Assembly: GCA_964606085.1 (NCBI GenBank) | Contig: CAZSFD010000014.1 | Coordinates: 3,469-67,468, forward strand | Source: an uncultured Anaerolineaceae bacterium | GTDB taxonomy: Bacteria > Chloroflexota > Anaerolineae > Anaerolineales > UBA4823 | DNA: 64,000 bases | Reading direction: 5' to 3' | Shown here: positions 19,446 through 42,362 of the stretch, one piece after another | Layout: every line of letters begins with the position of its first letter | How positions within the stretch are numbered: the first letter of the stretch is position 1 | Program-made: the position numbers and the translations under genes | Notes under the pieces: model-generated | Told to the model about the DNA's origin: nothing | Databases searched by the model: none | What the model saw: only the letters and a program-made list of their open reading frames with translations

Positions 19446-20150
19446 TCATGCCTCCTGCGGATTGATAAGCATTTGTCTATGGATCATTTCAATTTCCCGG
19501 CGAAACACTTCACCTGGATCGGTGATGAATGACGGCATCTGGTTGCCAATTTCCAGCGCGACCAGGCCGTGTACCCGGCTGGCGATGGTCAGTGCAGCGT
19601 ACAGGATTTCGACATCCACCCCGCCCACGGCGGCACTCCAGGCTGCGAGCATGGCTGTCAACGCCGGGGTGCGCGGCGCTAAGCGGTCGGTGCGAAACTG
19701 CCCGGCGGCATGGAGCGCCCGCAGCGTTTCGATCAGCGGTACGAAGGCCGCCGTCGCTGCCGGCAGTGTGATTTCGGCAGGGGCGTGGTAGCCGGGGATG
19801 GGCGTGCCGAAGATCAGTTGGTAGCGTTGGGGGTACGTCACCGCCCATTGGCGGTAGGCCAGGCCGAGGGCGGTCAAGCGCGCCGGGCCGTCTTCGGGCG
19901 CGCAACTGCCGATAGCCTGCATCTGCGCATTGCCCAGCGACTCGAACGCCTCCACGATCAGCGCTGTCACCAGCGCATCTCGGTCGGGAAAATAATTGTA
20001 GATGGCGGGGGCGGTGATGCCGATCTCGCGGGCGATGGCGCGCAGGCTGAGCGCCGCCGCACCGCTCTCGGCGATCTGCCGCCAGGCCGTCTCTTTGATC
20101 GTTTGTGGCAGATGGCTTTGTTGTTCTGTTTTGCGCGGGCGTGGGGACAT
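19446..20150 (-). CDS. TetR family transcriptional regulator
   Basis: N-terminal HTH LSLRAIAREIGITAPAIYNYFPDRDAL. AAGGAG lies upstream of the ATG. The stop is 1 nt before the SDR gene start. Confidence 0.9.
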   Translation of the reverse strand: MSPRPRKTEQQSHLPQTIKETAWRQIAESGAAALSLRAIAREIGITAPAIYNYFPDRDALVTALIVEAFESLGNAQMQAIGSCAPEDGPARLTALGLAYRQWAVTYPQRYQLIFGTPIPGYHAPAEITLPAATAAFVPLIETLRALHAAGQFRTDRLAPRTPALTAMLAAWSAAVGGVDVEILYAALTIASRVHGLVALEIGNQMPSFITDPGEVFRREIEMIHRQMLINPQEA

Positions 20151-20163
20151 GGCAGTCTCCTTA

Positions 20164-20215
20164 AATAAATAAACGGTGTATATTTATTAAGATAAATATA
20201 CACCGTTTATTTATT
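20164..20215. promoter_or_regulatory. Perfect 23-bp AT-rich inverted repeat (terminator and/or operator)
   Basis: AATAAATAAACGGTGTATATTTA (20164-20186) and TAAATATACACCGTTTATTTATT (20193-20215) flank a 6-nt loop. The repeat sits between the giant ORF stop (20231) and the tetR RBS and ATG (20150). Confidence 0.7.
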
Positions 20216-20230
20216 GTTGTCAAGGCTGTT

Positions 20231-23200
20231 TCACGGCCCGTTGCGGAAGATCAGCGGCAGGTAGATTTTGCGCAATGTCTCCTCCTCGCCCATGGTCAGC
20301 GTGGCTGTGGCGTTGGCGCTGGTGCTGCTGCCGGTGGCCGTGGCTGTCAGCGTGTATGTGCCATCGCCCGATGGCGTCACCCACACCAGCAGGGTGGCGG
20401 TGGCGTGGGCGGGCAGCGTGAGGGTGGCGCTGCTCAGGCTGAGGCTGGCCGCGGGATCGCTGGTAATGGACAGGTCGAGGGTGGCCAGCGTGGAACCGGT
20501 GTTGGTGACGACCAGGCCGAAAGCGGCACTGCCACTCTCGATGCTTTGTGTGGCGGGCTGCCAGGCGAGTTCGACGCCCTCCAGCGGGGTGATGGTCACT
20601 TCGGTGGTGGCTTGATCTTCGATGGCCGGCTGCGCTGTGGATTGGGCGTGGAGGCCGAGGAAGGCCGCGCCGGCGATCAAGCCATCCAGCCCGCTGACCG
20701 TCACCTGCACCGTCTGCGACTGCCCGGCGTTCAGCGTGACCGAGGCCGGGCTGAGCGTGGCAAACGCTGCCAGCGGCCCGAAGGCGGCCAGGTCGAACGT
20801 GCCGCTTGAACTGCCGGGGTTGCTCACGTTCACCTGCCACACGCCGCTGCCATCGGGTTGGAGGCTGGCCGGGCCGCCGGTGAAGGCCACGCTCACACCC
20901 AGGCTGCCCACCTGCACCACGCCATCCCCCGTGGCCGCCGCCCGCGCCGATTGTGCGGTGACGCCGACGGCATAGCTGCCCGGCGCAGCCGTGGCCGCCG
21001 GGCTGACCAGCCATTGCAGCGTGACGGCGTTGCCCGCGCCGGGGGCCACCAGCACGGCGCTGACCGGCTGGCCGAGCAGGGTCAGTTGGCCGCTCCAGCC
21101 TGCCGGGAGCGCCGCGCTCAGGTTGTAGGTGTCGGGCAGGCTGCCCAGGTTGGCGATGACCACGGTGAGGGCGGTCAGCGCGCCAGGGCCGGATGCGGCT
21201 GTTGCCGGGTCGAGTGTGACGGCGACGAGGTGGGCGCCTTCGCCGCTGATGACGGCGGTAGCGCTGGCGCTGGCCCCCGTTGCGGCGTAGGCGGCGATCA
21301 CGGTGAACGGGTTGCCGCCCTCGCTCACCGCCTGGGCGCTGAACGAAATTTCTGCGGCGCTGTTGGCGGGTACGCTGACCTGGGCGGGCAAATCGAGAAC
21401 GGCCAGGCCAGAGAAGGCGAGATCGTAGGTGCGGGCGGCGGCTTCGAGGTTGGTCACGGTCAGCGTGTAGGCAGCGGTCTCGCCGGTGGGTACGCCGGCG
21501 CTGTCGGGGGTGATCTCGACCAGCAGCGCCGGGCCGGTGAGGGTGAGAATGCCGCCGGCCTGATCGCCATCCACGAACACGCCAAAAGGCAGGCTGGCGG
21601 GCGTGGCGTCAGGGGCAATGGCGGCGGTGAGCGGCACGGTCACTGCGCTGTTGGCGGGTACGTTCACCGGGTCGAGCGGCCCCCAGGTGACGCCCGGCAG
21701 GGGGGTGACGCCGGGCGTGTAGAGGACGCCGGAAGGCCCTGGGTTGGAGAGCGTCACGTTGAACGTAACCGTCGCGCCGTTCGGGGCGGCCTGTTCTGCC
21801 GGGTCGAGGGCGATGATGTGCGGTACGCTGACGTACAGCGGCGGCAGTTCGAGGTGATTCTGGCCCGATGGCAGCGTGTAGTCAACGGATGTGGCCTGGG
21901 CGACGAGGCGGGTTTCGCCGGGTTGCAAGTCGGCAAGTTGGACATCGAAGGTACGCGTGATGACGGGGGTTTCCCAGGTTTGGGCGTAGTCCCAGGTGAA
22001 GGTGGGCAGGGCCAGGGTGGAAGGTTGCACGTTGAAGGTGTCGGTGAGGACGGTGAGGCTGTCCAGCCCGACGGTGTGGGTGAGGGCGACGGCGAAGGAG
22101 AGCATGGGGTAGCGCAGGTGAGTTTGCGTGCGGTAGGTGTTGTGAACTTCCCAGCTATTTGGCTCGCTGAAGGGCAGGCTCAGATCGTCGTTGATGTTGG
22201 TGATGTGGTAGGAGTGCTGGTTCCACAGCGGGCGGGCCTCCGTCCACAGCGGGCCGTTGCCAAAGACGCGCAGGCCGCGCAGGGCGGCTACCACCACTTC
22301 GGCCTGGCCGTCGTTATCTACATCGGCAATCAGGGGGTAATCGGTGCCGGTAAACGAATTGGCTAACGGTTCGTCGAAAAGCACATCGCCGGTCGCGCCA
22401 TCGAAAATCGTAAAGCCCTGCTCTTTCCCGTTCCAGGCCACTTCGTAAATGCCATCGCCATCCAGGTCCATCACCGCGGCGTTGTTGGCGGAGGTGCTGT
22501 CCTCGGCGATGACGCTCCACAGCAGCGAGCCATCGGCGTTGAGGGCGTAGAGCTTGCCGAAGCGCCCGGTTTCGAACTCGTGCTTCATGCCGGTAACGAT
22601 TTCGATCTCGCCGTCGCCATCTATGTCGGCGATGGATACGCCGCCGGGGTTGCCCGCTTCGAGCGGGGTCGTCCAGAGCAGCGCGCCGTCTGGCCCGTCG
22701 AGGACGGTCAGCGCGCCGTTGTGGGCGAAGGCCGCTTCGGGGCCGGGGTCGCCGCCGGGCTGCGCGCCATCTATATCGGCCACGGCGGGCGCGCCGAAGG
22801 TGCCGGCCATTGTCGAGGTCAGTGTGGCGCTCCAGGCCAGTTGCGGCGAGCCGTAGTTGAAGTCGTAGACGAACACTTCGTCGTCCCAACCGGTCAGGAC
22901 GATGTCGAGCAGGCCATCGCCGGTGAGGTCGGCCAGCACCGGCGGGTTGACTTCTTGGGGGTAGACGGTGCTCCACAGCAGTTCGCCATCGTGGGCGCGC
23001 ACTTCGAGGCGGTTGCCGGCGTTGACGACGATTTCGGGTTCGGGGTCGAGGTCGAGGTTGGCAATGGCCGGGGCGGTGAGGGTCTCGAAGATGCTGACGG
23101 TGTCGGTGACCCAGTAGGTGCTGCCGTCGCCGTGGAAGGCGTAGAGTTGGTCGCCCGCCGCCACGACGATCTCCGCGCCGGGCAAGCCGTCCAGGTCGCC

Positions 23201-26200
23201 CAGGGCGGGCGAGCTGACCCAGGTGCGGAAGGTTCCGCCGCCGAAGTCGTGCGACCAGACGATGGGGTCGCCGTCGCCGGTGTCGCCGCCATCGCCGCGA
23301 TAGACGAAGAGCGTGCCGAAGTTGATCACATCGTCGGCAGAGACCACGATTTCGGGCCGGCCGTCGGCATCTACATCGCCAACGGCCATACCGGCGGCGA
23401 TGCCGTAAGTGCCGAAGAAGGGCGCGCCGTTGCCGGCGGGGGTGTCATCCCACCATTCGGCAATCGGCTGGTAGGGCAAGGCGGGCTGGTTGGCGGCGAA
23501 GCCATCCACGCGCATCTCCCACACATTATGGACGCGAATGCTGTGCGGGCCGTAGGGCAGGCCGGTGTAGTGGAAGGCCAGCGGCTGAACGCTGAAGGGG
23601 TAATCGAAGCGGATCGTGTCGGTGAGAACGCCGTCTATGTAAATTTCGGCATGGGTATTGTCATTTACCGACAGTCCGTACACGGTGACGGAATCGCCCA
23701 CGAAGCTGTACCAGACGTTGCTGTTGCTGTTGGGCAGGCCCGAGTCCACGAAGTCACCCTGAAAGGCATTCGGGTGGGCGGCGTCGCTGGCCGAACTGCT
23801 GACATGCACGCGCGCCGATTCTTGGCCGCGCCGGGCGTTCTGGAAATCGTCGCTGACGGGCGAGCCGTCCCAGAACTCGACGTAATCGAGATAGACCTGG
23901 TTGTAGCCGTTGGGCGGGTCGGAGATGCCCAGCACGGTGATGGTGACGGTGTGTGTGCCGGTGATCACGTCGAACGGGTACGCGGCAACATCTTCGCCTG
24001 GCGTGTAGGCGTTGATGCTGCCGTAGCTCACGCCGTCAATGCTCACATCGGCCAGGCCGCCGCGGTTGCGCGTGCGCAGGCCGATTTCGAGCCAACTGCC
24101 GTAAAAATCGAAACTGACGGTATTGCCAGGGGTGTTGGATACGGCGTAGGCATACTCGCTGGCCTGCGGGGCGTTTTCGGCTCCCCACGTGTTGGGGCGA
24201 TGGGTGAAGGGGGAACCGTTGTAGCGCAGGGCGGGGTGGTCTTCCTCATAGCGCACCAGGCCGGTGTCGCTGGGCGGGTCGTAATCGGGGCCGACGGCGG
24301 GGGTGATGAAGGCGTCCACGTTGGCCTCGCCGCGGAACGTGCCGATCTGCATGACGTGAGGGCCGGGGCCGAAGCCGCTGAACGAGTAGGTGCGTGTGAC
24401 CGGCTGCCCGGCGTAGATCAGCACGTCGCCCTGCCACACGCCATCCACCCACACATGCACGCGGTGGCTGTCGTAGCGGGCGAGCGCCACGAAACTGGCC
24501 GAATCGCCGGTGAAGGGCAACCAGGCCGACTGGTTGTTGTTGATTGCGCCGTCTTGCATGTAACTGCCGCCGCTGGCCTCAGCCTGCGTGACCGTGAACC
24601 ATGCGCCGGGCTGGATCATGATGCGGGGATCGTTGTGTTCGTACAGGCCATCGGGGTAGAGCGTGCCATCCCAGGTATCCACGTAGTCAATCTTAATCTC
24701 GGCGCCGCTGGCGTTGGGGTGCGATTGACCCGTGACGACGATCTCCAGCGTGTGCGCGCCTTCGCCCAGTCCGCTGAAGGCGGCGCTGCTGGCGCATTCG
24801 CTGATGAAGCACTGCTGCACCGGGTGGTACAAATCCACCGTGCCGCGGCTGATGCCATCCACGAAGATTTCGGCAATGCCGCCGTTGCGCGCCTTCGCGA
24901 AGCCGATATGCACCCACGCGCCGTTGAACGCCAGGCTGGCCGTATCGCCCGGCGTGGCCGAGGCCGTATAGCTGCCGTCGCTCAGGTGCGAGGCGAAGAT
25001 GTTGCTGACGGTCGCCCAACTGCCGGTGTAAGCGAGGGCGGCATTTTGGGTGCGCGTGATGGCGAAGGTGGATTGGGGGGCGAGGGGAGGAAAGGAGATT
25101 TCTGATTGTTGATTGTTGATTGCTGAATTCTGATTGCGTGATTGCGTGATTGGGTGATTTTGCGGCACGATGCCGGGGATGATGATTTCGGTCGTGATAG
25201 CCGTGGTGACGGTGAACTCGCCGGGCGGGACGAGGAGCGGGGTGGTGCTGTGCGAGACGCCCAGCAGTTGGCCCACACCCAGGTAGGCGTAGTTGCTGCC
25301 CGTGGGGATCAGGCTGCCATTGCCATCGAGCAGTTCCACCGTGACGGTGTAGATACCGGCGGCCCAGCCGGAGGTATCCACGGTTTGCAGTTCGTAGCTG
25401 CGCGGCGCACCGACCCGGATCGTGACGGGCGTCTCGCTGCTGTGCGTGAGTGTGCCATCGGGTGCGCTGATGGCGGCGCGGGCGGTGGCGTTTTGCACAA
25501 TGTTGGCGATATTGGCGACATCTACAAACAGGGTGGTGCTGCTGCTGCCGGTCTCGACGAAAGCAGGCGTAGGCCGCACCGCCGTAATCTGCACAAACTT
25601 ATCCACCACGTTGAATTTCGCCGGGCTGTACGCCGAAATTTCACCGTGAGCGACGACCGTCACCGCCGCTTCCAGGTCATACACCCCGACAGCCGGCTGG
25701 ACGAGGTTATAGGGGCGGGTTTCCGTGCCGCCGGGATCGAGCGTGACCTGGCCGCCTTCGAGCGTGCCGCCGGGGAGCGAGACGGTGAAGGCGTAGGTGG
25801 TTTGCAGGCTGCCGCGGTTGGTGAGCGTGAGGGTGTAGGGAAGCGTCTGGTCGGTCAGGGCTGCGCCGTAGAAGGGCGTCCAGCGCAGTTCGGGGGCGTG
25901 CTGGCTCCAGGCGCACACTTCGCCATCCAGGGTGGTCACGGCGGCGCTGATCGCCTGGAGGTCGGCGGTCACATCGGCGGGGTCGGTGTGCGCGGCGAGG
26001 GAATCGGCGGCGGCAACCAGGGCCGCCGCGCCATCCAGTCCGTCGTGGACGGCCCCGGCGTAGAGCGCCACGCTGTAGGCGGCGCTGACGACCTGATCAC
26101 GCGGGATGGGGTGGCAGTCGCCGTTCTGGCAGGCGCTTTCGAGCGTCGTCATTGCCAGGGCCAGGGCATTCAGCGCCGCCGAAAGGCCCGGCTCGCCAAG

Positions 26201-29200
26201 CGTGCAGACGGTGGCGGCATTTTCCGATGCCTGGAAGACGGCCCCCGACAACTCGCTGACGATCTGCACGTTGGCAAGGGCATACTGCGTGTAACTGCCC
26301 GGCGCGGGGCTGCCGATGACGAGCGGGAAGCGCACACCCAGCGGCAGGTCGCTGGCGGCGGTGAAGGTGGCGGTTTGGGCGGCGCTTGCGCCTACGTCCA
26401 GCGTGACGGGCGAGGTCAGGCCGGTCACGCTGCCCACGTTAGGCGGTAAGATGACGTTCAAGGGGAAGCTGCCGGGGGCGTTGCCGACGTTGGTTATCGA
26501 AAGGTCGAAATCAGCGGCGGTGTTGGGGGCGAGGTAGAGGGTTGAAGGTTGGAAAGTTACAAAGTTGAAGGGTTGGGAGGGCATGAGCCAGTTGATCGTG
26601 GCCGAGTCGGAGAGCGCGCTGCCATCGCTGGCGCTGAGGTTGAGGGTCAGGCTCGTGCCGGGAGCGGGCAGGGTGGGCGGCGAAACATACAGGCCGAGCG
26701 TGGCGCGGGCGTTGGGGGCCAGGCTGAGGCTGGTGGCGCTTTGGCGCTCACCGTTTAAGATCAGCCAATCTGCTGGCGCGCCGGTGATGTTGAGGGTGAT
26801 GGTTTTGGGCTGCGAGGTCAGGTTTTCCACTTGCAAGCGGTAAGCGGCGTTGGGCACTTCGCTTTCGCCGTCGTTGGTCTCGTTGGCTTTCGCGTCGAGC
26901 AGGGCCGCACCGACCGGCACGCTGATATTCGGTTCAGCTTGCCAATCCAGGGTGATGGCGTTGGCGTTGGAAACGCTAATGGTGGTCTCGATGACGGCGG
27001 TGGCTTCGGGGTGCTGGCGCGCCTGGCCGACGATGCGCACGGTGTAATTTCCGGCGGCCACGCCCGGCAGGGGGGTGACGAGCGCTTCGAGCGTGGTTTC
27101 ATCGAAGGTCAACAGGAAGTCATCGGGCGCATAGGCCCACACATCCACCAGGCCAGCAAAGTTGGCCGCGGCGCTGATGTCGAAGGTGTGCGTTTCGCCA
27201 GGCAGTACACTGCCCGAAGGCGGCGTCACATCGAGGCTAAAGGCAGGCGAGCCGCCGCCGCCATCGGTCACTTCAATCACGCGCCCACCCCAGCTTTCAC
27301 CGGCGAAGCCGTCGTGGTAGCCAAAGGGTATCTCTGGCAGCGGGATGGGGGCCTGATCGGGGTAACGCAGGGCAAATTGTTCGATGCCGCAGGTTTCACC
27401 TGGGCAAAGATAGGCCGGCAGGTAACGCCATGAGGCGGCCTGTGGGCGCAGGCCGGGGCCGGGCGGCGACCAGCCATCCAGACAATTCGTCGGGCCGCCG
27501 GGGTTGCCTCGCAGCGCTGGCACCACGGCTTGCTCGATGCACGTCCACAGGTCAGAGACGGCCTGCTGAATTTCAGCGCCATCTTGCACGAGCAGGGCGA
27601 AATCTATGATGTTGGAGAGCATTTCATACTCGACCGCCGAAAGATGCAGCCCGTTCTCCATCACGCTGACAGTCTGGCCGGTTTGCGGGTCCACTTCCCA
27701 CCAGCCCAACACGGCCGCGCCGTCTACCATCACCGGCGCGGCGGGGATGAGGATGGCTTTGCCCTCCAGCAGGGCTTTTTCGGCGTAGGCGTAGGATGAA
27801 CCGGAGAAGTACAGTCCAAGCAGGGCGGTATCGCCGGGGGCAATCCACACCGGCTGGATGCCCTGTCCCGCCATCTCGTCGAAGAGGCGCGAGACGGTCA
27901 GCGGCGCCTGGCCGGTGAGCCGGAAGATGGCCTGGCCCTCGAAGTACGACTCGGCCACGCCTTTCAGCCATTGGGCGCTAAAGGCCGCCTGGGGCGACTG
28001 CCCCGGCGCGACCACGATTTTAGCCTCCGTCGAACGCAAATCTAACGCTTGGTAGACGCTGCCATCCGACTGCCGGGCGCTGCTGGCGATAATAACGCGT
28101 GGCTGTTCGTACACCCATTTGACCCGCAGCGAGGCTTCGATGTCGCGCTGCGTGCTGTCGGCCAGTTTGGCAAACTCCAAACCGGCCAGGGCATACTGCT
28201 CGTTACGCGCCTGAATATATTTGAGCATCATCTCGCGCAAGGCTGCCCCGCCGGCGGGCGTGCTGAGGTCGGCGGGCAGGTTTTGGGTCATTTGGGCGGT
28301 GGCGAGGATGGCGCGGGCGTTTTCGGCCTGGGCTTTGCGGGCGTATTGCTGATTTTTGAGCGCGTTGGGCAAGAACCAGGCGGCGAAGAGATCGTCGAAG
28401 GTGGCGAAGGGGGCATTATCGGCGGGCAGGGCGATGACCGGGTTGCCGCCGTGCAGTCGGGTTTCCAGGCCGAGCAAGTCTTTCAGTTCACGGGTGAAGC
28501 TATCGGTGACATTGCCGTTGCCATCCTGAATGGTCACGTGCAGCCACTCGGCCAGCGTGAAGTGGGAGGCCAGCGGGAAGTTGGTCAGCAAATCCTGGAA
28601 ATCGTCGCCCAGGAAGAGAACCTCATCGCCACCGACGGCGAAATAGGGCGTGTAGGTGTGCAAAATATTCGTCACCACGCCGCCCTGGATTGCCGTGTTG
28701 ACGATATGCCCAAAGGTGACGGCTTTGGCGGCCAGTTCGGGCATGGCAAAGGTGGCGGTGAGCGGGGTAAACGAAGTCAGGTTGAGGCCGCCCACCGGGA
28801 AACTGCTGTACTGCTCCACCTCGAGGGCAAAGGTGACGCGTTGACGCGTGGCGTCGGGCAGTTCGGCGAGGCGGTCGTTGCTGCCCGGCGTGGCGAAGAC
28901 ATCACCCACCTCGGCCTCGGCAAACGATGGGTCGAGGTTCGTCCAGCCAGAAGCGGGCAGGTAAGCCTCCACCCACCAGTGATCCTGGACGAGGGCGAGC
29001 AGGGCGGCGTCGTTGGCGGGGTCGGCGGTGGCCGCGCCAGCGGGCAGGTATCCGGCCACGCCCTGCGCCGCCGGGAACATGCCGTTGATCAATACCTGGG
29101 CATCTGCGGTGGAAAGCGTGCCGTGGCGGTAACGCGCCGGAATGCCCGCCGCACGCAGCATGGCGATCAGCAGGCTTGATTGGTCGAGGCTGTTGCCGGC

Positions 29201-29974
29201 CTCGTTCCACAGTGTGCCGCGCGTGCCGCGCAGCGAACCGGGGTAAGGGTCGAAGGCGAAGCCGCGCACGAAGGCGAAGAGCGCCAGCGGGTCTTGTGCA
29301 AACTCAGCAGATTTCCACAGCATGTCGGCGTCGTGTGAGTTGGCATCCAGCGTGGGCGTGGTGTAGGCGGCGGCGATGCCGGTCGGGATGATCGTGGCAG
29401 GGTGGGCTGTAACGGAGACGGTCTGTCCCCAATACGTGGCCGAAGCCTGCGCACCGCTATCGAGATTGATAAAGTTTGACCCGGCGGCAGGCGTTTGCAC
29501 GGTCAGCGTGAGCGTTGCGCTGGCCTGCGGCGGCAGGTCGGGCAGGCTCCAGGTGATGGTGCTGCCGCTCTGCACCGGCCCGTCCGAGGCAGACACAAAA
29601 GTGGTGCCAGCGGCAAGCGTATCGGCCAGGGTGAGGCCGCGCAGGGTGTTGACATCGTCGGTGGGGTTGAAAGCTGCCAGGATGTTGACCGTGTCGGTGG
29701 GTGTGGTGGATGGCGAAATATCGGGCAGGCGCGTGGCTGGCAGGTTGTTGGTGAGGACGAAGGTGATCGTCGTCGTCCCGGCGGTGTAGGAAGATTGGAG
29801 GCGCGAGAGCGAGAGGGGGTGATCCAACGTCTGCGCCGGGGCAGCGGCGGTTTGCGCATCGGGCGCTGGCGGAACTTGGGGCGTGGTCACGGCTGCCTGG
29901 ACGGGCATGAAGGCGAAGAGTTGGGCAATGATGACCAGCAGCGAAATGGCTCGGAAGGTGATGGAACGGTGCAT
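20231..29974 (-). CDS. Giant (3,247 aa) secreted mosaic surface protein: DUF11-like, transglutaminase-like, Ig-like arrays, jelly-roll modules, FG-GAP propeller
   Basis: Uninterrupted ORF with AGGAG 7 nt upstream of the ATG and a signal peptide MHRSITFRAISLLVIIAQLFAFMPVQA. Segments seen in order: DUF11-like LADTLAAGTTFVSASDG..TWSLPDL; transglutaminase-like LLIAMLRAAGIPARY / HWWVEAYLPASGWTNLDPS; four jelly-roll-like repeats; eight D.D.DG..E(I/V)V blades; NEW3/CARDB-like LPAGWSG..APGSYAVGV modules. Confidence 0.85.
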   Translation of the reverse strand: MHRSITFRAISLLVIIAQLFAFMPVQAAVTTPQVPPAPDAQTAAAPAQTLDHPLSLSRLQSSYTAGTTTITFVLTNNLPATRLPDISPSTTPTDTVNILAAFNPTDDVNTLRGLTLADTLAAGTTFVSASDGPVQSGSTITWSLPDLPPQASATLTLTVQTPAAGSNFINLDSGAQASATYWGQTVSVTAHPATIIPTGIAAAYTTPTLDANSHDADMLWKSAEFAQDPLALFAFVRGFAFDPYPGSLRGTRGTLWNEAGNSLDQSSLLIAMLRAAGIPARYRHGTLSTADAQVLINGMFPAAQGVAGYLPAGAATADPANDAALLALVQDHWWVEAYLPASGWTNLDPSFAEAEVGDVFATPGSNDRLAELPDATRQRVTFALEVEQYSSFPVGGLNLTSFTPLTATFAMPELAAKAVTFGHIVNTAIQGGVVTNILHTYTPYFAVGGDEVLFLGDDFQDLLTNFPLASHFTLAEWLHVTIQDGNGNVTDSFTRELKDLLGLETRLHGGNPVIALPADNAPFATFDDLFAAWFLPNALKNQQYARKAQAENARAILATAQMTQNLPADLSTPAGGAALREMMLKYIQARNEQYALAGLEFAKLADSTQRDIEASLRVKWVYEQPRVIIASSARQSDGSVYQALDLRSTEAKIVVAPGQSPQAAFSAQWLKGVAESYFEGQAIFRLTGQAPLTVSRLFDEMAGQGIQPVWIAPGDTALLGLYFSGSSYAYAEKALLEGKAILIPAAPVMVDGAAVLGWWEVDPQTGQTVSVMENGLHLSAVEYEMLSNIIDFALLVQDGAEIQQAVSDLWTCIEQAVVPALRGNPGGPTNCLDGWSPPGPGLRPQAASWRYLPAYLCPGETCGIEQFALRYPDQAPIPLPEIPFGYHDGFAGESWGGRVIEVTDGGGGSPAFSLDVTPPSGSVLPGETHTFDISAAANFAGLVDVWAYAPDDFLLTFDETTLEALVTPLPGVAAGNYTVRIVGQARQHPEATAVIETTISVSNANAITLDWQAEPNISVPVGAALLDAKANETNDGESEVPNAAYRLQVENLTSQPKTITLNITGAPADWLILNGERQSATSLSLAPNARATLGLYVSPPTLPAPGTSLTLNLSASDGSALSDSATINWLMPSQPFNFVTFQPSTLYLAPNTAADFDLSITNVGNAPGSFPLNVILPPNVGSVTGLTSPVTLDVGASAAQTATFTAASDLPLGVRFPLVIGSPAPGSYTQYALANVQIVSELSGAVFQASENAATVCTLGEPGLSAALNALALAMTTLESACQNGDCHPIPRDQVVSAAYSVALYAGAVHDGLDGAAALVAAADSLAAHTDPADVTADLQAISAAVTTLDGEVCAWSQHAPELRWTPFYGAALTDQTLPYTLTLTNRGSLQTTYAFTVSLPGGTLEGGQVTLDPGGTETRPYNLVQPAVGVYDLEAAVTVVAHGEISAYSPAKFNVVDKFVQITAVRPTPAFVETGSSSTTLFVDVANIANIVQNATARAAISAPDGTLTHSSETPVTIRVGAPRSYELQTVDTSGWAAGIYTVTVELLDGNGSLIPTGSNYAYLGVGQLLGVSHSTTPLLVPPGEFTVTTAITTEIIIPGIVPQNHPITQSRNQNSAINNQQSEISFPPLAPQSTFAITRTQNAALAYTGSWATVSNIFASHLSDGSYTASATPGDTASLAFNGAWVHIGFAKARNGGIAEIFVDGISRGTVDLYHPVQQCFISECASSAAFSGLGEGAHTLEIVVTGQSHPNASGAEIKIDYVDTWDGTLYPDGLYEHNDPRIMIQPGAWFTVTQAEASGGSYMQDGAINNNQSAWLPFTGDSASFVALARYDSHRVHVWVDGVWQGDVLIYAGQPVTRTYSFSGFGPGPHVMQIGTFRGEANVDAFITPAVGPDYDPPSDTGLVRYEEDHPALRYNGSPFTHRPNTWGAENAPQASEYAYAVSNTPGNTVSFDFYGSWLEIGLRTRNRGGLADVSIDGVSYGSINAYTPGEDVAAYPFDVITGTHTVTITVLGISDPPNGYNQVYLDYVEFWDGSPVSDDFQNARRGQESARVHVSSSASDAAHPNAFQGDFVDSGLPNSNSNVWYSFVGDSVTVYGLSVNDNTHAEIYIDGVLTDTIRFDYPFSVQPLAFHYTGLPYGPHSIRVHNVWEMRVDGFAANQPALPYQPIAEWWDDTPAGNGAPFFGTYGIAAGMAVGDVDADGRPEIVVSADDVINFGTLFVYRGDGGDTGDGDPIVWSHDFGGGTFRTWVSSPALGDLDGLPGAEIVVAAGDQLYAFHGDGSTYWVTDTVSIFETLTAPAIANLDLDPEPEIVVNAGNRLEVRAHDGELLWSTVYPQEVNPPVLADLTGDGLLDIVLTGWDDEVFVYDFNYGSPQLAWSATLTSTMAGTFGAPAVADIDGAQPGGDPGPEAAFAHNGALTVLDGPDGALLWTTPLEAGNPGGVSIADIDGDGEIEIVTGMKHEFETGRFGKLYALNADGSLLWSVIAEDSTSANNAAVMDLDGDGIYEVAWNGKEQGFTIFDGATGDVLFDEPLANSFTGTDYPLIADVDNDGQAEVVVAALRGLRVFGNGPLWTEARPLWNQHSYHITNINDDLSLPFSEPNSWEVHNTYRTQTHLRYPMLSFAVALTHTVGLDSLTVLTDTFNVQPSTLALPTFTWDYAQTWETPVITRTFDVQLADLQPGETRLVAQATSVDYTLPSGQNHLELPPLYVSVPHIIALDPAEQAAPNGATVTFNVTLSNPGPSGVLYTPGVTPLPGVTWGPLDPVNVPANSAVTVPLTAAIAPDATPASLPFGVFVDGDQAGGILTLTGPALLVEITPDSAGVPTGETAAYTLTVTNLEAAARTYDLAFSGLAVLDLPAQVSVPANSAAEISFSAQAVSEGGNPFTVIAAYAATGASASATAVISGEGAHLVAVTLDPATAASGPGALTALTVVIANLGSLPDTYNLSAALPAGWSGQLTLLGQPVSAVLVAPGAGNAVTLQWLVSPAATAAPGSYAVGVTAQSARAAATGDGVVQVGSLGVSVAFTGGPASLQPDGSGVWQVNVSNPGSSSGTFDLAAFGPLAAFATLSPASVTLNAGQSQTVQVTVSGLDGLIAGAAFLGLHAQSTAQPAIEDQATTEVTITPLEGVELAWQPATQSIESGSAAFGLVVTNTGSTLATLDLSITSDPAASLSLSSATLTLPAHATATLLVWVTPSGDGTYTLTATATGSSTSANATATLTMGEEETLRKIYLPLIFRNGP
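25097..25161 (-). repeat. Heptamer/octamer repeat tract translated in frame inside the giant ORF
   Basis: The minus strand reads AATCACCCAATCACGCAATCACGCAATCAGAATTCAGCAATCAACAATCAACAATCAGAAATC and encodes NHPITQSRNQNSAINNQQSEI. It shares the ..CAATCAGAAATC end and AATCA(R)C units with the intergenic element at 13273-13305. Confidence 0.75.
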
Positions 29975-30094
29975 GACTTACTCCTGAGGGCGGTATAATC
30001 ACCCGTATCAAGGATATTGGTAAGTTGGATAAATACCACTAATTTTATCCGAAAAACACCTGGAAAATGCTTAAAAATACAATAGTAAGCTGCG

Positions 30095-30550: not shown

Positions 30551-31789
30551 ATGAATACCTCCCCTCAGCAATCCTATCGTGTTCGCGCGGTTCATTGCGA
30601 TTACCGCGTGCCAGATGAAGAAGTTTATCAGGCCCTCCAGCGCGCCACCGAACCCCTTGAGCGCGCCTGGGATCGGCTGAAACGGGCGCGGCGTATCGCC
30701 ATCAAGATCAACCACGATTGGCAGCCGCACAAGCTGGTCACCTACCAGGGCCACCGCCAGCAATTGGTGGGCGATGCCGTCGGCCGGGCGGTGCTGCGCC
30801 TGCTCAAAGAGCGCACGACCGCCGAAATCTATGTGGTGGATGTGGGCGTCGAAAGCCTGATGCTCGGCCAGGAGCGCGAGGCGGGCTATCTGATCCTGCC
30901 GGTGCTGCGCGAATTTGGCGTGCCGTTGATTGACGGCGTCAACGACCCGGTCAAATGGGTCAACGTGCCAGGCGGCGGACAGATGTTCGAGCGCTACCCC
31001 ATCCCGCAGTCGGTGGCCGATGCCGATGAGGTGATCTCGGTGCAGAAGATCAAAAATCACGCTTTCATGGGCGTGACCTTGTGCCTGAAGAACCTGTTTG
31101 GCCTGCTGCCGCTGCTTCCGCATGGCCGCCCGCGGCATTATTATCACCACCTGGTGCGCATGCCCTACATGCTGGCCGATATTGGCAAAATTTTCGACCC
31201 GGCGTTGAACATCCTGGATGGGTTGGTGTGCCAGGCCGGGCAGGAATGGGGACCAGGCGATGAGCCGCGTATCTGCAACACGCTGGTGGCTGGCGACCAC
31301 GCCATTGCTACAGATGCGTGTGCCGCCCACCTGATGGGCCACGATCCGCAATCAGATTGGCTGACTCCGCCCTTCCACCGTGACCGCAACGCTTTGTTGG
31401 TGGCGGCGCAGGGCGGTTACGGCACGGTCAACCTGGCAGAAATTGATTTCCAGTCGGAAGTGCAAGCGCCTATCGGCCAGTTCTTTGCCAAAGAATATGA
31501 TTCGCGCCAAATGGTCGCTTCGTGGCAGCGCACCACCTGTGAGCAGGGCCTGTATTACCGCGACCACCAGAAAGAAATTGCCGCACAGTATGCCGGGCAG
31601 TACATCATGCTGCAAATGAACGAGGTGCGCTGGGCCAGCCCCGATGGCCGCTTCAACATCAGCCGCCGCATCCTTGCGGGCGGCAACCCCGAACAGGCCA
31701 TGTGGCTCAAATATGTTGACCCTGAGGAAGATGAAGGCGAGCATTACGAAGTTTACGAGAATTTTCTCAAGCATCCGGCTTTCCAGTAA
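30551..31789 (+). CDS. DUF362-like protein (cytoplasmic) with ~100-aa C-terminal extension
   Basis: Motifs seen: RIAIKINHDW, VQKIKNHAFMGVTLCLKNLFGLLP, NTLVAGDHAIATDACAAHLMG. These resemble the DUF362 pattern also seen in the paralog at 39155-40249. Confidence 0.65.
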   Translation: MNTSPQQSYRVRAVHCDYRVPDEEVYQALQRATEPLERAWDRLKRARRIAIKINHDWQPHKLVTYQGHRQQLVGDAVGRAVLRLLKERTTAEIYVVDVGVESLMLGQEREAGYLILPVLREFGVPLIDGVNDPVKWVNVPGGGQMFERYPIPQSVADADEVISVQKIKNHAFMGVTLCLKNLFGLLPLLPHGRPRHYYHHLVRMPYMLADIGKIFDPALNILDGLVCQAGQEWGPGDEPRICNTLVAGDHAIATDACAAHLMGHDPQSDWLTPPFHRDRNALLVAAQGGYGTVNLAEIDFQSEVQAPIGQFFAKEYDSRQMVASWQRTTCEQGLYYRDHQKEIAAQYAGQYIMLQMNEVRWASPDGRFNISRRILAGGNPEQAMWLKYVDPEEDEGEHYEVYENFLKHPAFQ

Positions 31790-39126: not shown

Positions 39127-39157
39127 AAAACGGGCGCTGCAAGCGCCCGTTTTTTTA
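39124..39157. terminator. Bidirectional rho-independent terminator
   Basis: AAAAAACGGGCGCT gca AGCGCCCGTTTTTTT lies between convergent genes. It overlaps the TAA of the minus-strand gene. Confidence 0.85.
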
Positions 39158-40249
39158 CTGTATGTTCAATTCTTCCACCCGCAAATTCGCCAGGTCGCTG
39201 CGCCCCAGGCCGCGCTGGGCGGCGGCAGCCACATAAACGAGGTCTTCGGGCTGTAAGCCGAACAGCGTGGCGGTGTAGCTGTCGAGGGCCACGATGTCGC
39301 GTGAAACGATGATCGTGTCGGCTTTTTTGACTTCTTGCAAGCTGAAACCCGTGGGGCCGCCATCCATCATCATGCGCACGGCATCCATCACGTTCAGCGT
39401 CGGGCGCAGCACCGAGATCAGGTCGGCCAGGCGGTTGCCGAAGGTCTCGCCAAAAAAGGTCACTTCGGTATCGTGCATGGCCGGGCGGTTGGAGATGACC
39501 CCCATCAGGTTCTTCATTCCCAGGGTCAACCTGGCGTTGGCGTGATGCTTGGCAATGGGGACGTTGATGACCACATCGGCTTTGAGAATTTCTTCGTAGA
39601 TGCCAAATTCCTGAAATTGCACGCCCTGTGGCGCAGGCGTGGCGATGAACTTCTCCACGGGCATCCACTCCATCACGCCGCCCGCCGCCTCCACCTGCTC
39701 CTGAATGCCGCTGCGGGCGTAGGCTTCGGTCATGTTGCGTTGCCAGGTCTGATCCATCACGCGCACGCTGGCTGCCCCGGCTTCGAAGGCCATCTTGACG
39801 AGCGTGCCGACCACCCACGGGTTGGTGGTGGCGGCCCATTGGTAAGTGCGGAAATCTACGCAGATGTTGGGTTTGACGATCACGTTCGCGCCAGGGAAGA
39901 CGAACTGCTCCATGCCACCCAGGGCGGCGATGGCGCGGCGCACCAGGTCTTCGGGTTCACCGTTACGGGCTACGATGATGTCGGGGCCGGGGGTGGGCGT
40001 GGCGGAGGGGGCGGGCGTTTCGGTGGGGATTGGCGCGTCGGTGGGTGCGCTGGTTGCACTGGGGGGAACGGTGAAGGTGGGTGGTGGCGGTTGGGTGGCC
40101 GTTGGCTGTGGGCGCGGCGTTTGGCTGGCCGCCGGCAGCGCCGCGGCAGGCGTGCTGGTTTCATCTACCCCGCAGGCCGCCAGGGCCAGCGCCGATACAC
40201 TGGTTGCTGCAATGCGCAGGAATTGTTTGCGAGAGAGCGCCTTTTTCAT
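39155..40249 (-). CDS. DUF362-like lipoprotein (extracytoplasmic paralog)
   Basis: The start MKKALSRKQFLRIAATSVSALALAACG gives a lipobox, followed by a PT linker. Motifs seen: ANVIVKPNICV, PIAKHHANARLTLGMKNLMGV, IIVSRDIVALDSY. Confidence 0.7.
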   Translation of the reverse strand: MKKALSRKQFLRIAATSVSALALAACGVDETSTPAAALPAASQTPRPQPTATQPPPPTFTVPPSATSAPTDAPIPTETPAPSATPTPGPDIIVARNGEPEDLVRRAIAALGGMEQFVFPGANVIVKPNICVDFRTYQWAATTNPWVVGTLVKMAFEAGAASVRVMDQTWQRNMTEAYARSGIQEQVEAAGGVMEWMPVEKFIATPAPQGVQFQEFGIYEEILKADVVINVPIAKHHANARLTLGMKNLMGVISNRPAMHDTEVTFFGETFGNRLADLISVLRPTLNVMDAVRMMMDGGPTGFSLQEVKKADTIIVSRDIVALDSYTATLFGLQPEDLVYVAAAAQRGLGRSDLANLRVEELNIQ

Positions 40250-40299
40250 GGGCAAGGTGTCCTTTCGATACCGTTCTATATTCCGATACAATTAGTCGT

Positions 40300-40356: not shown

Positions 40357-41442
40357 TTACGGGCTGTTGAGCGCCTGGCGCATCACGGCCAGCACGGCCT
40401 CCTGAACCGGGAGCAGCACCTGGGCGCCGCCCGATGTGACCCACGGAACGAGCTGCTCATAGCCAATGCCATAGCGATGAATGCGGGTGGGATCGAGCAA
40501 TTGCGTTGCCAGCGGCAGCAGGGGGGCCACATCTTCAAAGCGGATGTTGGTGACGACGTTGTTGATATAGATATTGTATAAATCGGGGGCGCGTTTGACG
40601 GCATCTAAGCTCATCAATTTTTGGAAGATCGCCAGCAGCACTTCTTGTTGGCGGCGGCCGCGGTCTATGTCGTTGGTGGAGTAGCGCGAGCGCACATACC
40701 ACAGCGCCGTCTCGCCGTCCATGTGGTTGAGGCCGGCGGGCATGGTGTAATCGCCATAGCCCGTGCGGTGGTCGGTTAACGTCACGGCCACCTGCACGTC
40801 AATTCCTCCCAGGTTGTCAATCACTTCTTTGAAGGACCAGAAGTTGATCACCACATAATGGCTGGGCCGCACACCGAAATTGTATTCCATCGTGATCGCC
40901 AGCGCATCGAACCCGCCATAGCCAAAGGCGGTGTTGATGCGCTGCGTTGTCCAGCCAGGGATATAGACGTACAGGTCGCGCGGAAACGAGGTCAGGCTGA
41001 CGGTGCCGGCCTGCGGGTTGAGCGTGGCTAACAAAAGGGTGTCGGTGCGAAACCCGCCGCTATCAGGACGCTGATCTGAACCCAGCAGCAGGATATTCAC
41101 CTGGCCTTCGGGCTGTGGCAGCAAACCCACGGGCGGGGGGATGTCAATATCAGGCCAGACCGATGGCCCCGGATACGTATCCCAATTGGTTGGCGACTGG
41201 TTGGAGATGACCACATCGGCGGCTGGCGTTTGTGCGGGCTCGGTGGATAGGGCGTTGGCCACGGGCAGATAAGTGGCCGTGGGCGCCAGCGGCTGGAATG
41301 GCGTGGGCGTGGGCGTTGAACCCGCTGGCCCAATCGCCAGGATGGGTGGCATGTAGCCCGGCGAAAACGGCCCCCCGCAGGCAGCTAACGCCAGGCTGCA
41401 TAGCCACAAAAAAATGCCTATGGGGGCAATCGTGCGTCTCAT
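40357..41442 (-). CDS. LytR-CpsA-Psr (LCP) family protein
   Basis: Motifs seen: NILLLGSDQRPD, RTDTLLLATLNP, SLTSFPRDLYVYIPGW, RINTAFGYGG. The N-terminal signal carries LALAACGG. Confidence 0.85.
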   Translation of the reverse strand: MRRTIAPIGIFLWLCSLALAACGGPFSPGYMPPILAIGPAGSTPTPTPFQPLAPTATYLPVANALSTEPAQTPAADVVISNQSPTNWDTYPGPSVWPDIDIPPPVGLLPQPEGQVNILLLGSDQRPDSGGFRTDTLLLATLNPQAGTVSLTSFPRDLYVYIPGWTTQRINTAFGYGGFDALAITMEYNFGVRPSHYVVINFWSFKEVIDNLGGIDVQVAVTLTDHRTGYGDYTMPAGLNHMDGETALWYVRSRYSTNDIDRGRRQQEVLLAIFQKLMSLDAVKRAPDLYNIYINNVVTNIRFEDVAPLLPLATQLLDPTRIHRYGIGYEQLVPWVTSGGAQVLLPVQEAVLAVMRQALNSP

Positions 41443-42362
41443 GGGTTTTCTGCCGAGGGGGTGTCGCTGGGGATGGCCGCTGGCGTTTGGCTCGGCTCAG
41501 GCGTGGCTGTGGGTTCGGGCGTGGCTGTGGGTTCAGGGGTATCCGTGGCCGTTGCAGATGGCGTATCGGTGGGCGTGGGCGTGGCGGTTGGCTCTTCGGG
41601 CAGCAGCGTGGGGGTGCTTGTGGGGGTGGGGGTTTCTGTGGCGGGGATGGGTGTGGTTGGCTCAGGCGTGTGTGTGGCGGTTTCGGTGGGTGTGATGGCT
41701 GTCGTCGGTGCGGGGATGGTTGCGCTGGCGGTGGCTTCGGGGGTGAGGCTGGGCAGCGGGGTGATCGTCGGCGCAATGGGTTCGATGGGTGGGCGGTTGG
41801 GCACATAGAGCTTTTGCCCGGCGCGGATCAGGTCGCTGGCGAGGCAATTGGCGAAGCGCAATTCGTCCACCGTGGTGGCAAATAACTGGCTGATGGCCAG
41901 CAAGGTGTCGCCAGGCCGCACCTGGTAAGTCACCCACCCTGGATATGGGCCGCACGGTAAGCTGGTGTCTGTCGGGGCCACGGCTGGCACATAGAGGGTC
42001 GCCCCGGCGATCAGTCTGTCTATCAGCAGGCAGTTGACGCGTTTCAATTCAGCGGCGCTGATGCCATAGCGTTCGGCCAGGGTGGTCAGGTCATCGCCGG
42101 GTTGAATGTTGATGGCGATCCAGTTGGCTGGCTGGGGGCAGGCGGTGGGCAGGGCGGCTGACCGGGGCGGTGTGGCCGCGAACGTGACGGTTGGTTGACC
42201 AGGCGTGCGGATGAACTGCGGCCCGACGGTATTGACCGCCGTTGCCAGCAGCGCAATGGCTGGTTGTCCTTCGGCAAATGCCAGCGCCATACTGCCGATC
42301 ACCAGGAGCAGCGAGACACAAGCCAGGGCAATACCCGCAAAAGCCTGTTTCAACGCGCTCAT
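41439..42362 (-). CDS. LysM-domain protein with long C-terminal PT-rich tail
   Basis: One N-terminal hydrophobic helix. Two LysM repeats: IQPGDDLTTLAERYGISAAELKRVN and VRPGDTLLAISQLFATTVDELRFAN..AGQKLYVP. The tail includes EPTATPEPTATPEPSQTP, encoded by an 18-bp tandem at 41500-41535. Confidence 0.85.
   Translation of the reverse strand: MSALKQAFAGIALACVSLLLVIGSMALAFAEGQPAIALLATAVNTVGPQFIRTPGQPTVTFAATPPRSAALPTACPQPANWIAINIQPGDDLTTLAERYGISAAELKRVNCLLIDRLIAGATLYVPAVAPTDTSLPCGPYPGWVTYQVRPGDTLLAISQLFATTVDELRFANCLASDLIRAGQKLYVPNRPPIEPIAPTITPLPSLTPEATASATIPAPTTAITPTETATHTPEPTTPIPATETPTPTSTPTLLPEEPTATPTPTDTPSATATDTPEPTATPEPTATPEPSQTPAAIPSDTPSAENP

Follow-up and report, generated by a model that had tools for sequence, protein, structure and literature searches.

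A giant modular protein family of Chloroflexota, with a transglutaminase-like head that has lost its catalytic cysteine and a putative YLP-box sorting motif, as a candidate surface adhesin

Parts of the protein described here resemble several known systems. The stalk domains of fibrillar adhesins include DUF11, also called CLIPPER (PMC12617251). The eight-bladed propeller of the Vibrio cholerae protein Bap1 binds the exopolysaccharide VPS at its center and has Ca sites (bioRxiv 10.64898/2026.08.03.742583), and the Cys-His-Asp triad of Pseudomonas aeruginosa TgpA, a protein with the transglutaminase core fold, lies within amino acids (aa) 396-467 (PMC3507681). We analyzed a stretch of 64,000 nucleotides from an uncultured Anaerolineaceae bacterium (contig CAZSFD010000014.1, positions 3,469 to 67,468; here, the window), which contains one giant gene at positions 20231-29974 on the minus strand. 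Flocs of activated sludge, anaerobic granules, and hot-spring mats have filamentous Chloroflexota as their backbone, and the building and decoration of the unusual envelopes of these bacteria are poorly understood. An earlier note, written from the sequence alone, had described a single uninterrupted 9.7-kb frame encoding 3,247 aa but gave no strand; the frame was confirmed as one unbroken open reading frame (ORF) with an ATG start and a stop codon.

The reading that we favor, with modest confidence, is that this protein is a giant Sec-exported, envelope-retained fibrillar adhesin or matrix-binding protein of Anaerolineae-type Chloroflexota; we infer its export, tethering, topology, glycan binding, and adhesive role from the features given below. 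The analysis itself shows the ORF, the folds of the domains, the conservation of the family, the loss of the Cys, the enrichment and C-terminal position of the YLP-box, and the alternation of this motif with transmembrane tails. The signal peptide would carry the chain across the membrane, and the YLP-box at the extreme C terminus would be recognized by a putative sorting or retention system that keeps this end at the envelope, a role that a transmembrane (TM) helix followed by an Arg cluster may play in some relatives. Approximately 10 immunoglobulin (Ig)-like modules would form a stalk, and four carbohydrate-binding module (CBM)-like jelly-rolls, together with an eight-bladed Ca-loop propeller, would bind glycans (e.g., external polysaccharide or, from the cell itself, exopolysaccharide and polymers of the sheath or wall). 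The distal N-terminal head, which has a transglutaminase fold, a lost nucleophile, and an almost invariant cleft, may be a non-catalytic ligand-binding tip. Two features of fibrillar adhesins, a signal peptide and repeated Ig-like stalk domains, are present; DUF11/CLIPPER domains and Ig arrays are hallmarks of their stalks. CBM-like folds and a Bap1-like propeller were found as candidate binding domains.

The giant protein belongs to a widespread family. When 1.84 billion representatives were scanned exhaustively with HMMER, 5,272 matches had an E value of ≤1e-3 and 424 cluster representatives one of ≤1e-30; the best matches were mostly 2,500-6,188 aa long, with the head at approximately residues 200-900. 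A relative is present in at least 325 GTDB species representatives, and in the raw DNA of 79 distinct loci the typical ORF through the match was a single frame of 3,200-4,200 aa. A BLAST map placed all modules of the query in the same order in loci L003, L008, L017, and L023 (3,283-3,331 aa), and many longer relatives were likewise colinear with the query. Most relatives share the N-terminal hydrophobic signal of the query, and the C-terminal regions vary (e.g., PKD and dockerin-like). The hosts are Anaerolineales, Ardenticatenaceae, Promineifilaceae, Thermoflexales, Caldilineales, Herpetosiphonaceae, Candidatus (Ca.) Leptovillus, and Ca. Brachythrix, with two or three paralogs in several genomes. 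The closest relative (68-69% identical) comes from an Anaerolineales metagenome-assembled genome (MAG). A family fragment that is 42% identical (L033; CAYNRF010000295.1, 3.2 kb) was found in a MAG labeled Phycisphaeraceae (Planctomycetota); this placement is probably a binning error, because the contig is short.

The initial database search with aa 200-900 returned 84 Chloroflexota proteins, all of ≤1,216 aa. A stand-alone family of approximately 1,000 aa, to which the query would be a fusion, was ruled out by the raw genome DNA and the exhaustive HMMER scan. Public gene calls in this family are often cut at approximately 1,000-1,200 aa and have Arg-rich, frameshift-like ends (P0008, P0009, P0011, P0016, P0017, and others). 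The word-indexed search gave no full-length member, and an automated comparison of architectures could be misled. The exact protein is already deposited in a public collection as an NCBI entry without a name, encoded on a 76-kb contig. A literature search for giant transglutaminase-like Chloroflexi proteins found nothing relevant, and we could find neither a published description of the family nor an NCBIfam family model for it. A combination of features defines the family: the transglutaminase head lacks the nucleophile and is extended by 500 aa, a helical insert contains Cys, four modules are CBM-like, the propeller has eight blades, and the putative anchor is a YLP-box or a TM tail. The earlier note knew of no characterized protein with the whole architecture and held that close homologs of the same architecture with an assigned function would refute its view. 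The architecture proved not to be unique, being conserved end to end in many Chloroflexota, but none of the relatives has an assigned function.

Self-BLAST of the protein revealed no internal repeats at an E value of ≤1e-3. The module boundaries were set from motifs, Pfam, and structure models, because the modules are too diverged for self-alignment. Segment-wise HMMER searches against Pfam left the earlier domain list mostly intact. The features, from the start of the gene to its end, are as follows (pLDDT, predicted local distance difference test).

29981-29985, minus strand: Shine-Dalgarno sequence AGGAG, 6 nt ahead of the ATG (direct read)
20231-29974, minus strand: complete ORF, 3,247 aa and a stop codon (direct read)
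29894-29974, minus strand: Sec-type signal peptide, aa 1-27, with an n-region (R3/R8), an h-region, and VQA/A (by inspection)
29390-29827, minus strand: DUF11/CLIPPER-like Ig domain, aa ~50-195 (Pfam PF01345, E value 1e-7, match at aa 110-170)
28925-29287, minus strand: transglutaminase-like core, aa 230-350 (PF01841, E value 5e-14, Transglut_core match at 234-349; TgpA 6g49 alignment; Foldseek; family logo)
27620-28843, minus strand: family-specific head extension, aa ~378-785 (AlphaFold2 pLDDT mostly 84-98; kept in all homologs)
27335-27622, minus strand: low-confidence linker with four Cys residues (812/831/857/862), aa ~785-880 (pLDDT <50)
26240-27292, minus strand: Ig-like FixG_C/NEW3-type modules 1-3, aa ~895-1245 (Pfam FixG_C and NPCBM_assoc; strand-B motifs at aa 1045 and 1156)
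25880-26242, minus strand: helical insert with four Cys residues (1257/1282/1287/1354), aa ~1245-1365 (present in all homologs retaining the region)
25151-25882, minus strand: Ig-like modules 4-5, aa ~1365-1608 (weak FixG_C/TcfC E-set matches; motif at aa 1380)
25055-25150, minus strand: Q/N-rich linker (period-7/8 DNA micro-repeat)
23480-25042, minus strand: four CE2_N/CBM-like beta-jelly-roll modules, aa ~1645-2165 (PF17996, E value 3e-12; AlphaFold2 pLDDT 84.5; Foldseek)
22055-23422, minus strand: eight-bladed FG-GAP/VCBS-type beta-propeller with DxDxDG Ca-loop motifs, aa ~2185-2640 (six FG-GAP_3 matches, E value 1e-19; PQQ_2; eight loops)
21815-22057, minus strand: post-propeller beta module, aa ~2640-2720 (conserved jointly with the propeller)
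20309-21817, minus strand: five Ig-like FixG_C/NEW3/fn3_5/ASH-type modules 6-10, aa ~2720-3222 (Pfam; strand-B motifs at aa 2738, 2836, 2936, and 3152)
20234-20272, minus strand: YLP-box, an ultrashort C-terminal putative sorting motif (...LRKIYLPLIFRNGP, then the stop codon; NCBIfam NF053834)

The head combines a well-matched fold with a missing catalytic residue. The transglutaminase-like core that the earlier note had placed at aa ~230-350 was recovered both by Pfam (PF01841, 53 bits versus a cutoff of 23) and by Foldseek, which matched the modeled head to FXIII, TG2, TgpA, and 3isr. In an HMMER alignment to P. aeruginosa TgpA (6g49), Ser262 occupies the position of the catalytic Cys, and His332 and Asp348 fall on the His and Asp of the triad (in TgpA, presumably residues 404/448/464). 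Both His332 and Asp348 are invariant or nearly so across the family. Among 159 family members, the nucleophile position holds Ser in 71%, Ala in 23%, Gly in 6%, and Cys in none, while the flanking residues (Y, L, R, G, R, W, G, N, D, L-R, G, P, Y) are 97-100% invariant. An invariant family loop, Y-x-G-S-L-R-G-x-R-G-T-L-W, precedes the position. Because Ser, Ala, and Gly replace one another between proteins that are 90-95% identical locally, the position seems to be constrained to a small residue rather than to a nucleophile. The cleft would be under strong selection, though not for covalent Cys or Ser catalysis, and the head is likely a pseudo-enzyme or a binding head. Since every family member examined lacks the Cys, there is no ground for assuming cross-linking or Cys-protease chemistry, and the description of the head as "protease/cross-linking-like" is not sustained.

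For aa 200-900, AlphaFold2 run on an alignment of 46 sequences gave a confident model (pLDDT 83; predicted template-modeling score 0.82), which comprises the transglutaminase core, two beta-sandwiches, a helical hairpin of ~45 residues, an alpha/beta domain, and a disordered, Cys-containing linker. Like the model of aa 1650-2180 described below, it was combined with Foldseek as the earlier note had proposed. According to this model, aa 350-880 are a family-specific extension of the head and not part of an Ig array. The extension (aa ~350-880) matched no Pfam family, and a profile of the head alignment found no solved relative among PDB sequences. Whole-model Foldseek matches for the head were weak (E value ~5e-3; template-modeling score ~0.1) because of the multi-domain geometry.

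These results alter the Ig-like portion of the earlier layout, in which ~1,200 aa of CARDB/NEW3-type modules followed the core. Such modules are found at aa ~895-1245 (FixG_C/NEW3 Pfam matches at aa ~1044-1128) and aa ~1365-1608, but not at aa 350-880, which had no Pfam match and were modeled as described above, nor in the helical Cys insert at aa ~1245-1365, for which no convincing Pfam family was found. The remaining parts of the layout stood: the DUF11-like repeat near the N terminus (which is devoid of Lys over aa ~50-195, so that no isopeptide bond is possible), the Q/N-rich linker encoded by a DNA repeat, and the five further NEW3-like modules near the C terminus, where Pfam matches span aa 2830-3212. 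The micro-repeat of the linker, at 25100-25159 inside the ORF, has periods of 7 and 8 (TGATTGT and TGATTGCG, ~3.5 copies each). Because neither period is a multiple of 3, slippage would shift the frame and truncate the protein after ~1,620 aa, and a phase-variation switch is conceivable from this sequence.

The C terminus carries a motif that recurs at the same position in many relatives. The protein ends with RKIYLPLIFRNGP, in which the YLP-box IYLPLIFR stops 5 residues short of the stop codon; complete relatives end in IYLPLIVRSP, LYLPIVLRP, IYLPVIVK, VMIPILFKTP, and similar tails. The element described in the earlier note as a short hydrophobic tail is thus a curated motif, the "YLP-box putative sorting motif" of NCBIfam, with NF053834 scoring 14.7 bits against a cutoff of 10; a second YLP-box model, NF050076, scored 12.0 bits and did not reach its cutoff of 15. 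When the strict pattern was required within the last 14 residues and its expectation was calculated from its internal frequency, 37 ORFs matched across the loci and the window together, against 0.47 expected. Within the family, the motif terminates 16 (strict) to 22 (relaxed) of the 26 complete ORFs. It also terminates unrelated proteins with signal peptides, namely, beta-helix plus Calx-beta (~806 aa), NosD-like beta-helix, and DUF11 plus PKD proteins. YLP-tailed neighbors lie directly upstream of the family gene in several genomes (L011:6586-9006, L012:103-2631, L021:6757-9186, L047:6850-9264, L005:3508-5349, and L028:5830-9366). This arrangement suggests that genes for putative YLP-box cargo form clusters.

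In ~10 full-length representatives, a TM helix and an Arg cluster (RRR) take the place of the YLP-box (e.g., P0118, P0128, P0131, P0132, P0138, P0140, P0153, P0162, and P0169). None of these tails reached the cutoff of an NCBIfam CTERM model, and they could be an undescribed tail type or a simple membrane anchor. A sequence of the form [VE]P[TS]A[IV]xL often lies upstream of the helix; we do not claim it as a signal, since it may be a mere linker after the last Ig domain. The alternation between YLP-box and TM tail as anchors would place the C terminus near the cell and the pseudo-transglutaminase head at the distal end.

The modules in the middle of the chain are the candidate binding domains. 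The four jelly-roll modules and the end motifs quoted for them in the earlier note were all located, with G.H.(L/V).I at aa 1739, 1871, 2006, and 2142. CE2_N (PF17996) matches module 3 (aa 1945-2013; 47 bits versus a cutoff of 27.9), and in the AlphaFold2 model of aa 1650-2180 all four modules are beta-sandwiches of the jelly-roll type. With this model, Foldseek (probability 1.0; E values of 1e-14 to 1e-7) retrieved tandem arrays of CBM/galactose-binding-like domains, including a CBM22 tandem, CBM35-bearing enzymes, Cry1/Vip3 lectin-like domains, BcsB, and reelin repeats. Distant relatives of the jelly-rolls occur in PgdA-type deacetylase, NlpC/P60, GH25 lysozyme, and CW_binding_2 proteins, contexts that hint at wall or glycan recognition. 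The eight FG-GAP/VCBS-like blades were likewise recognized: PF13517 (FG-GAP_3; 71 bits) matches six stretches within aa 2190-2620, PQQ_2 also matches, and eight DxDxDG-type blade loops lie between aa 2200 and 2551 at a spacing of ~50 aa. The best PDB sequence match of the propeller is V. cholerae Bap1 (6MLT, apo), with an E value of 6e-16.

The frame codes for protein, as hundreds of homologs show. Long ORFs of up to 841 aa are also present on the opposite strand and are the usual artifact of high GC content. The signal peptide and the AGGAG site of the earlier note are both present, the former as judged by inspection: aa 4-30 are the sole TM-like hydrophobic stretch in the whole protein, and a VQA/A cleavage-like site follows, giving a signal-peptide-like Sec segment. 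The 10 Cys residues fall into even-numbered local clusters (812/831/857/862, 1257/1282/1287/1354, and 1722/1727), as would be expected of an extracytoplasmic protein. The ORF has a GC content of 64-68%, compared with 57-61% in its flanks. At third codon positions (GC3), the value is 0.82 for the ORF, 0.745 for the pooled neighbors, and 0.81 for GAPDH; at second positions (GC2), it is 0.51 versus 0.43, which is due to a composition rich in Ala, Gly, Pro, and Thr. Composition and, possibly, codon optimization account for the raised GC content. Horizontal transfer was rejected as its source and is not needed to explain it, since GC3 is within the native range and GC2 reflects composition.

Several points weigh against the reading as an envelope-retained adhesin. 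In members bearing Ser, such as the query, Ser262 stands with the His and Asp intact, and Ser-His-Asp hydrolase activity is conceivable. The sorting role of the YLP-box is a curated prediction only and thus putative; neighbor clustering found no sorting enzyme among the conserved neighbors of the family loci, and we found no publication on the YLP-box or on Chloroflexota sorting signals. Carbohydrate binding by the jelly-rolls is suggested by their modeled fold alone, and the Bap1 match spans ~3 blades and is largely the generic FG-GAP/Ca-loop repeat. The neighbors in the window give no functional link to the giant gene.

Among the alternatives, a structural part of the envelope that self-assembles on the cell (i.e., a sheath, an S-layer-like coat, or a junction between the cells of a filament) is unlikely but the strongest of those considered. 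The near confinement of the family to filamentous Chloroflexota lineages, its two or three paralogs per genome, a GC3 as high as that of GAPDH (a weak hint of high expression), and a weak match to NF033506 ("putative S-layer protein") at aa 3047-3093 agree with such a part. This match, however, scored 21 bits against a cutoff of 110, and no SLH, sheath, or other S-layer domain was found in Pfam or NCBIfam; the modularity of stalk plus binding domains is typical of adhesins and not of lattice formers, and the C-terminal regions differ among relatives. The earlier inference of a cell-surface adhesin, matrix, or S-layer-associated protein is best supported in its adhesin or matrix part, and its S-layer part found no backing. 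Somewhat less likely again is a surface-anchored enzyme, with either a Ser-His-Asp hydrolase or acyltransferase head or a polysaccharide lyase- or esterase-type unit made of propeller and jelly-rolls, the rest serving as tether and for substrate binding. Ser262, His332, and Asp348 do occupy triad positions, but 29% of the 159 relatives have Ala or Gly at the nucleophile position, and the residue there flips between near-identical proteins. The propeller has weak matches to lambda-carrageenase (E value 1e-4) and to the C-terminal domain of PL11 rhamnogalacturonan lyase (E value 3e-4), both under the Pfam cutoffs, and CE2_N, although derived from an esterase family, is the non-catalytic beta-sandwich of CE2 enzymes, with no esterase catalytic domain found in the query.

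It is very improbable that the protein is a polymorphic toxin or serves contact-dependent competition by delivering a variable effector at its C terminus. Relatives do have variable C-terminal extensions, and faint TcdB_toxin_midN matches lie within the propeller; a genomics paper on polymorphic toxins reportedly mentions transglutaminase-like domains and Chloroflexi. Yet the TcdB match is sub-threshold and restricted to a 20-residue FG-GAP-like stretch, the C terminus consists of Ig modules and the YLP-box, domain scans found no RHS/YD repeats or C-terminal toxin domain, and no immunity-like small ORF lies downstream, so the polymorphic-toxin class does not apply. Least credible of all is that the ORF is non-functional or an artifact, whether through pseudogene decay or chimeric assembly. 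The truncation of many database homologs at ~1,000-1,200 aa with frameshift-like, Arg-rich tails and the out-of-frame micro-repeat within the ORF would fit it, but 3,247 codons are intact (a chance of ~e^-82 at this base composition), many genomes contain intact ORFs that are colinear with the gene, and strongly conserved motifs are retained.

In the window, the giant gene lies, as previously described, between a TetR regulator and a divergent cluster of Rieske, DUF362, and enolase genes. A TetR/AcrR gene (19446-20150, minus strand) is downstream on the same strand, and Rieske, DUF362, MR/MLE enolase-superfamily, and YgjP genes form the divergent upstream cluster. Directly upstream of the TetR/AcrR gene is a perfect AT-rich palindrome with 24-nt arms (20164-20215), which is overlapped by a sigma-70-type promoter, TTGACA-17-TATATT (20223..20195, minus strand; 11/12 consensus matches). 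The palindrome is probably an autoregulated TetR operator, and it could also serve as a terminator hairpin for the giant gene. TetR was dropped as a candidate regulator of the giant gene, given its own promoter and palindromic operator and no evidence linking the two. The window contains two DUF362 genes, at 30551-31789 (in the Rieske-DUF362-MR/MLE-YgjP cluster) and 39155-40291. An envelope-related minus-strand trio at 40357-42362 and 42359-44761 comprises an LCP (LytR-CpsA-Psr) glycopolymer ligase-family protein, a LysM protein, and a histidine kinase; the LCP/LysM pair is ~10 kb from the giant gene. Otherwise, the window holds genes for housekeeping, sugar metabolism, and two-component systems.

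At the other family loci, neighbor clustering yielded only regulators, other YLP-tailed proteins, and an LCP protein in 5 loci; LCP genes lie near the family gene in 4 loci besides the window. A BTAD-AAA_16-TPR (SARP/STAND-type) regulator of ~1,034 aa divergently adjoins the family gene in 25 loci (e.g., L067:5842-8946, minus strand), and a LAL-type LuxR regulator stands beside it in 5 loci. Neither type adjoins the giant gene in this window.

The query represents a very widespread family cleanly and in intact form. Public annotation labels the members only "transglutaminase family protein", a misleading name for proteins without the catalytic Cys. They offer concrete cargo for the predicted YLP-box sorting pathway, a natural series of anchor choices (YLP-box versus TM tail), and a starting point for a ligand search in their well-conserved pseudo-enzyme cleft. 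A more ambitious proposal, which we put forward only tentatively, is that the YLP-box serves a Chloroflexota-specific sorting system as its signal for cleavage or attachment, with the giant family as its flagship cargo forming surface fibrils that bind multicellular filaments to one another, to their sheath or exopolymer, and to substrates, and with the invariant nucleophile-less cleft as a new ligand-binding tip. If this were true, the family would be a key determinant of the formation of Chloroflexota flocs, granules, and mats; if the protein is merely another giant adhesin, the main gain is improved annotation. Giant modular surface adhesins are well known as a kind, and NCBIfam has already curated the YLP-box as putative.

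Compared with the described systems, the giant protein shares some elements with each. Like Bap1/RbmC of V. cholerae, it has a secretion signal and an eight-bladed FG-GAP/VCBS-type propeller with Ca-loop motifs; Bap1, in contrast, is a protein of ~690 aa from a diderm proteobacterium, has a beta-prism lectin inserted in its propeller, and is without the stalk, the transglutaminase head, and the putative C-terminal sorting tag, all three of which the query has. The LapA/CdrA-type adhesins, which are controlled by the transglutaminase-like protease LapG, likewise pair a giant repetitive surface adhesin with a transglutaminase-like fold in the same system. There, LapG is a protein of its own with active Cys-protease function, and a type I secretion system (T1SS)/RTX substrate forms the adhesin; in the query, the fold is in cis and without Cys, the N terminus is of the Sec type, and no RTX or HemolysinCabind match was found in Pfam or NCBIfam, so it falls outside the T1SS LapA-like class. 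TgpA (6g49/6g4h) and the animal transglutaminases have the same core fold, with His and Asp conserved, and erythrocyte protein 4.2, an inactive transglutaminase paralog among the fold matches, also lacks the catalytic Cys; the fold may serve as a binding scaffold. Distinctive of the family are the replacement of Cys by Ser, Ala, or Gly, its own invariant loop, and its 500-aa head extension. With the fibrillar adhesins (PMC12617251), the query shares a signal peptide and a long Ig-like stalk in which one domain is of the DUF11 type, and it has candidate binding domains and a putative sorting element at the C terminus. It differs from them in having its binding modules in mid-chain, a pseudo-transglutaminase head, and a DUF11 domain without Lys, and in carrying a YLP-box as its putative anchor in place of an LPXTG, PEP-CTERM, or type IX secretion system (T9SS) signal.

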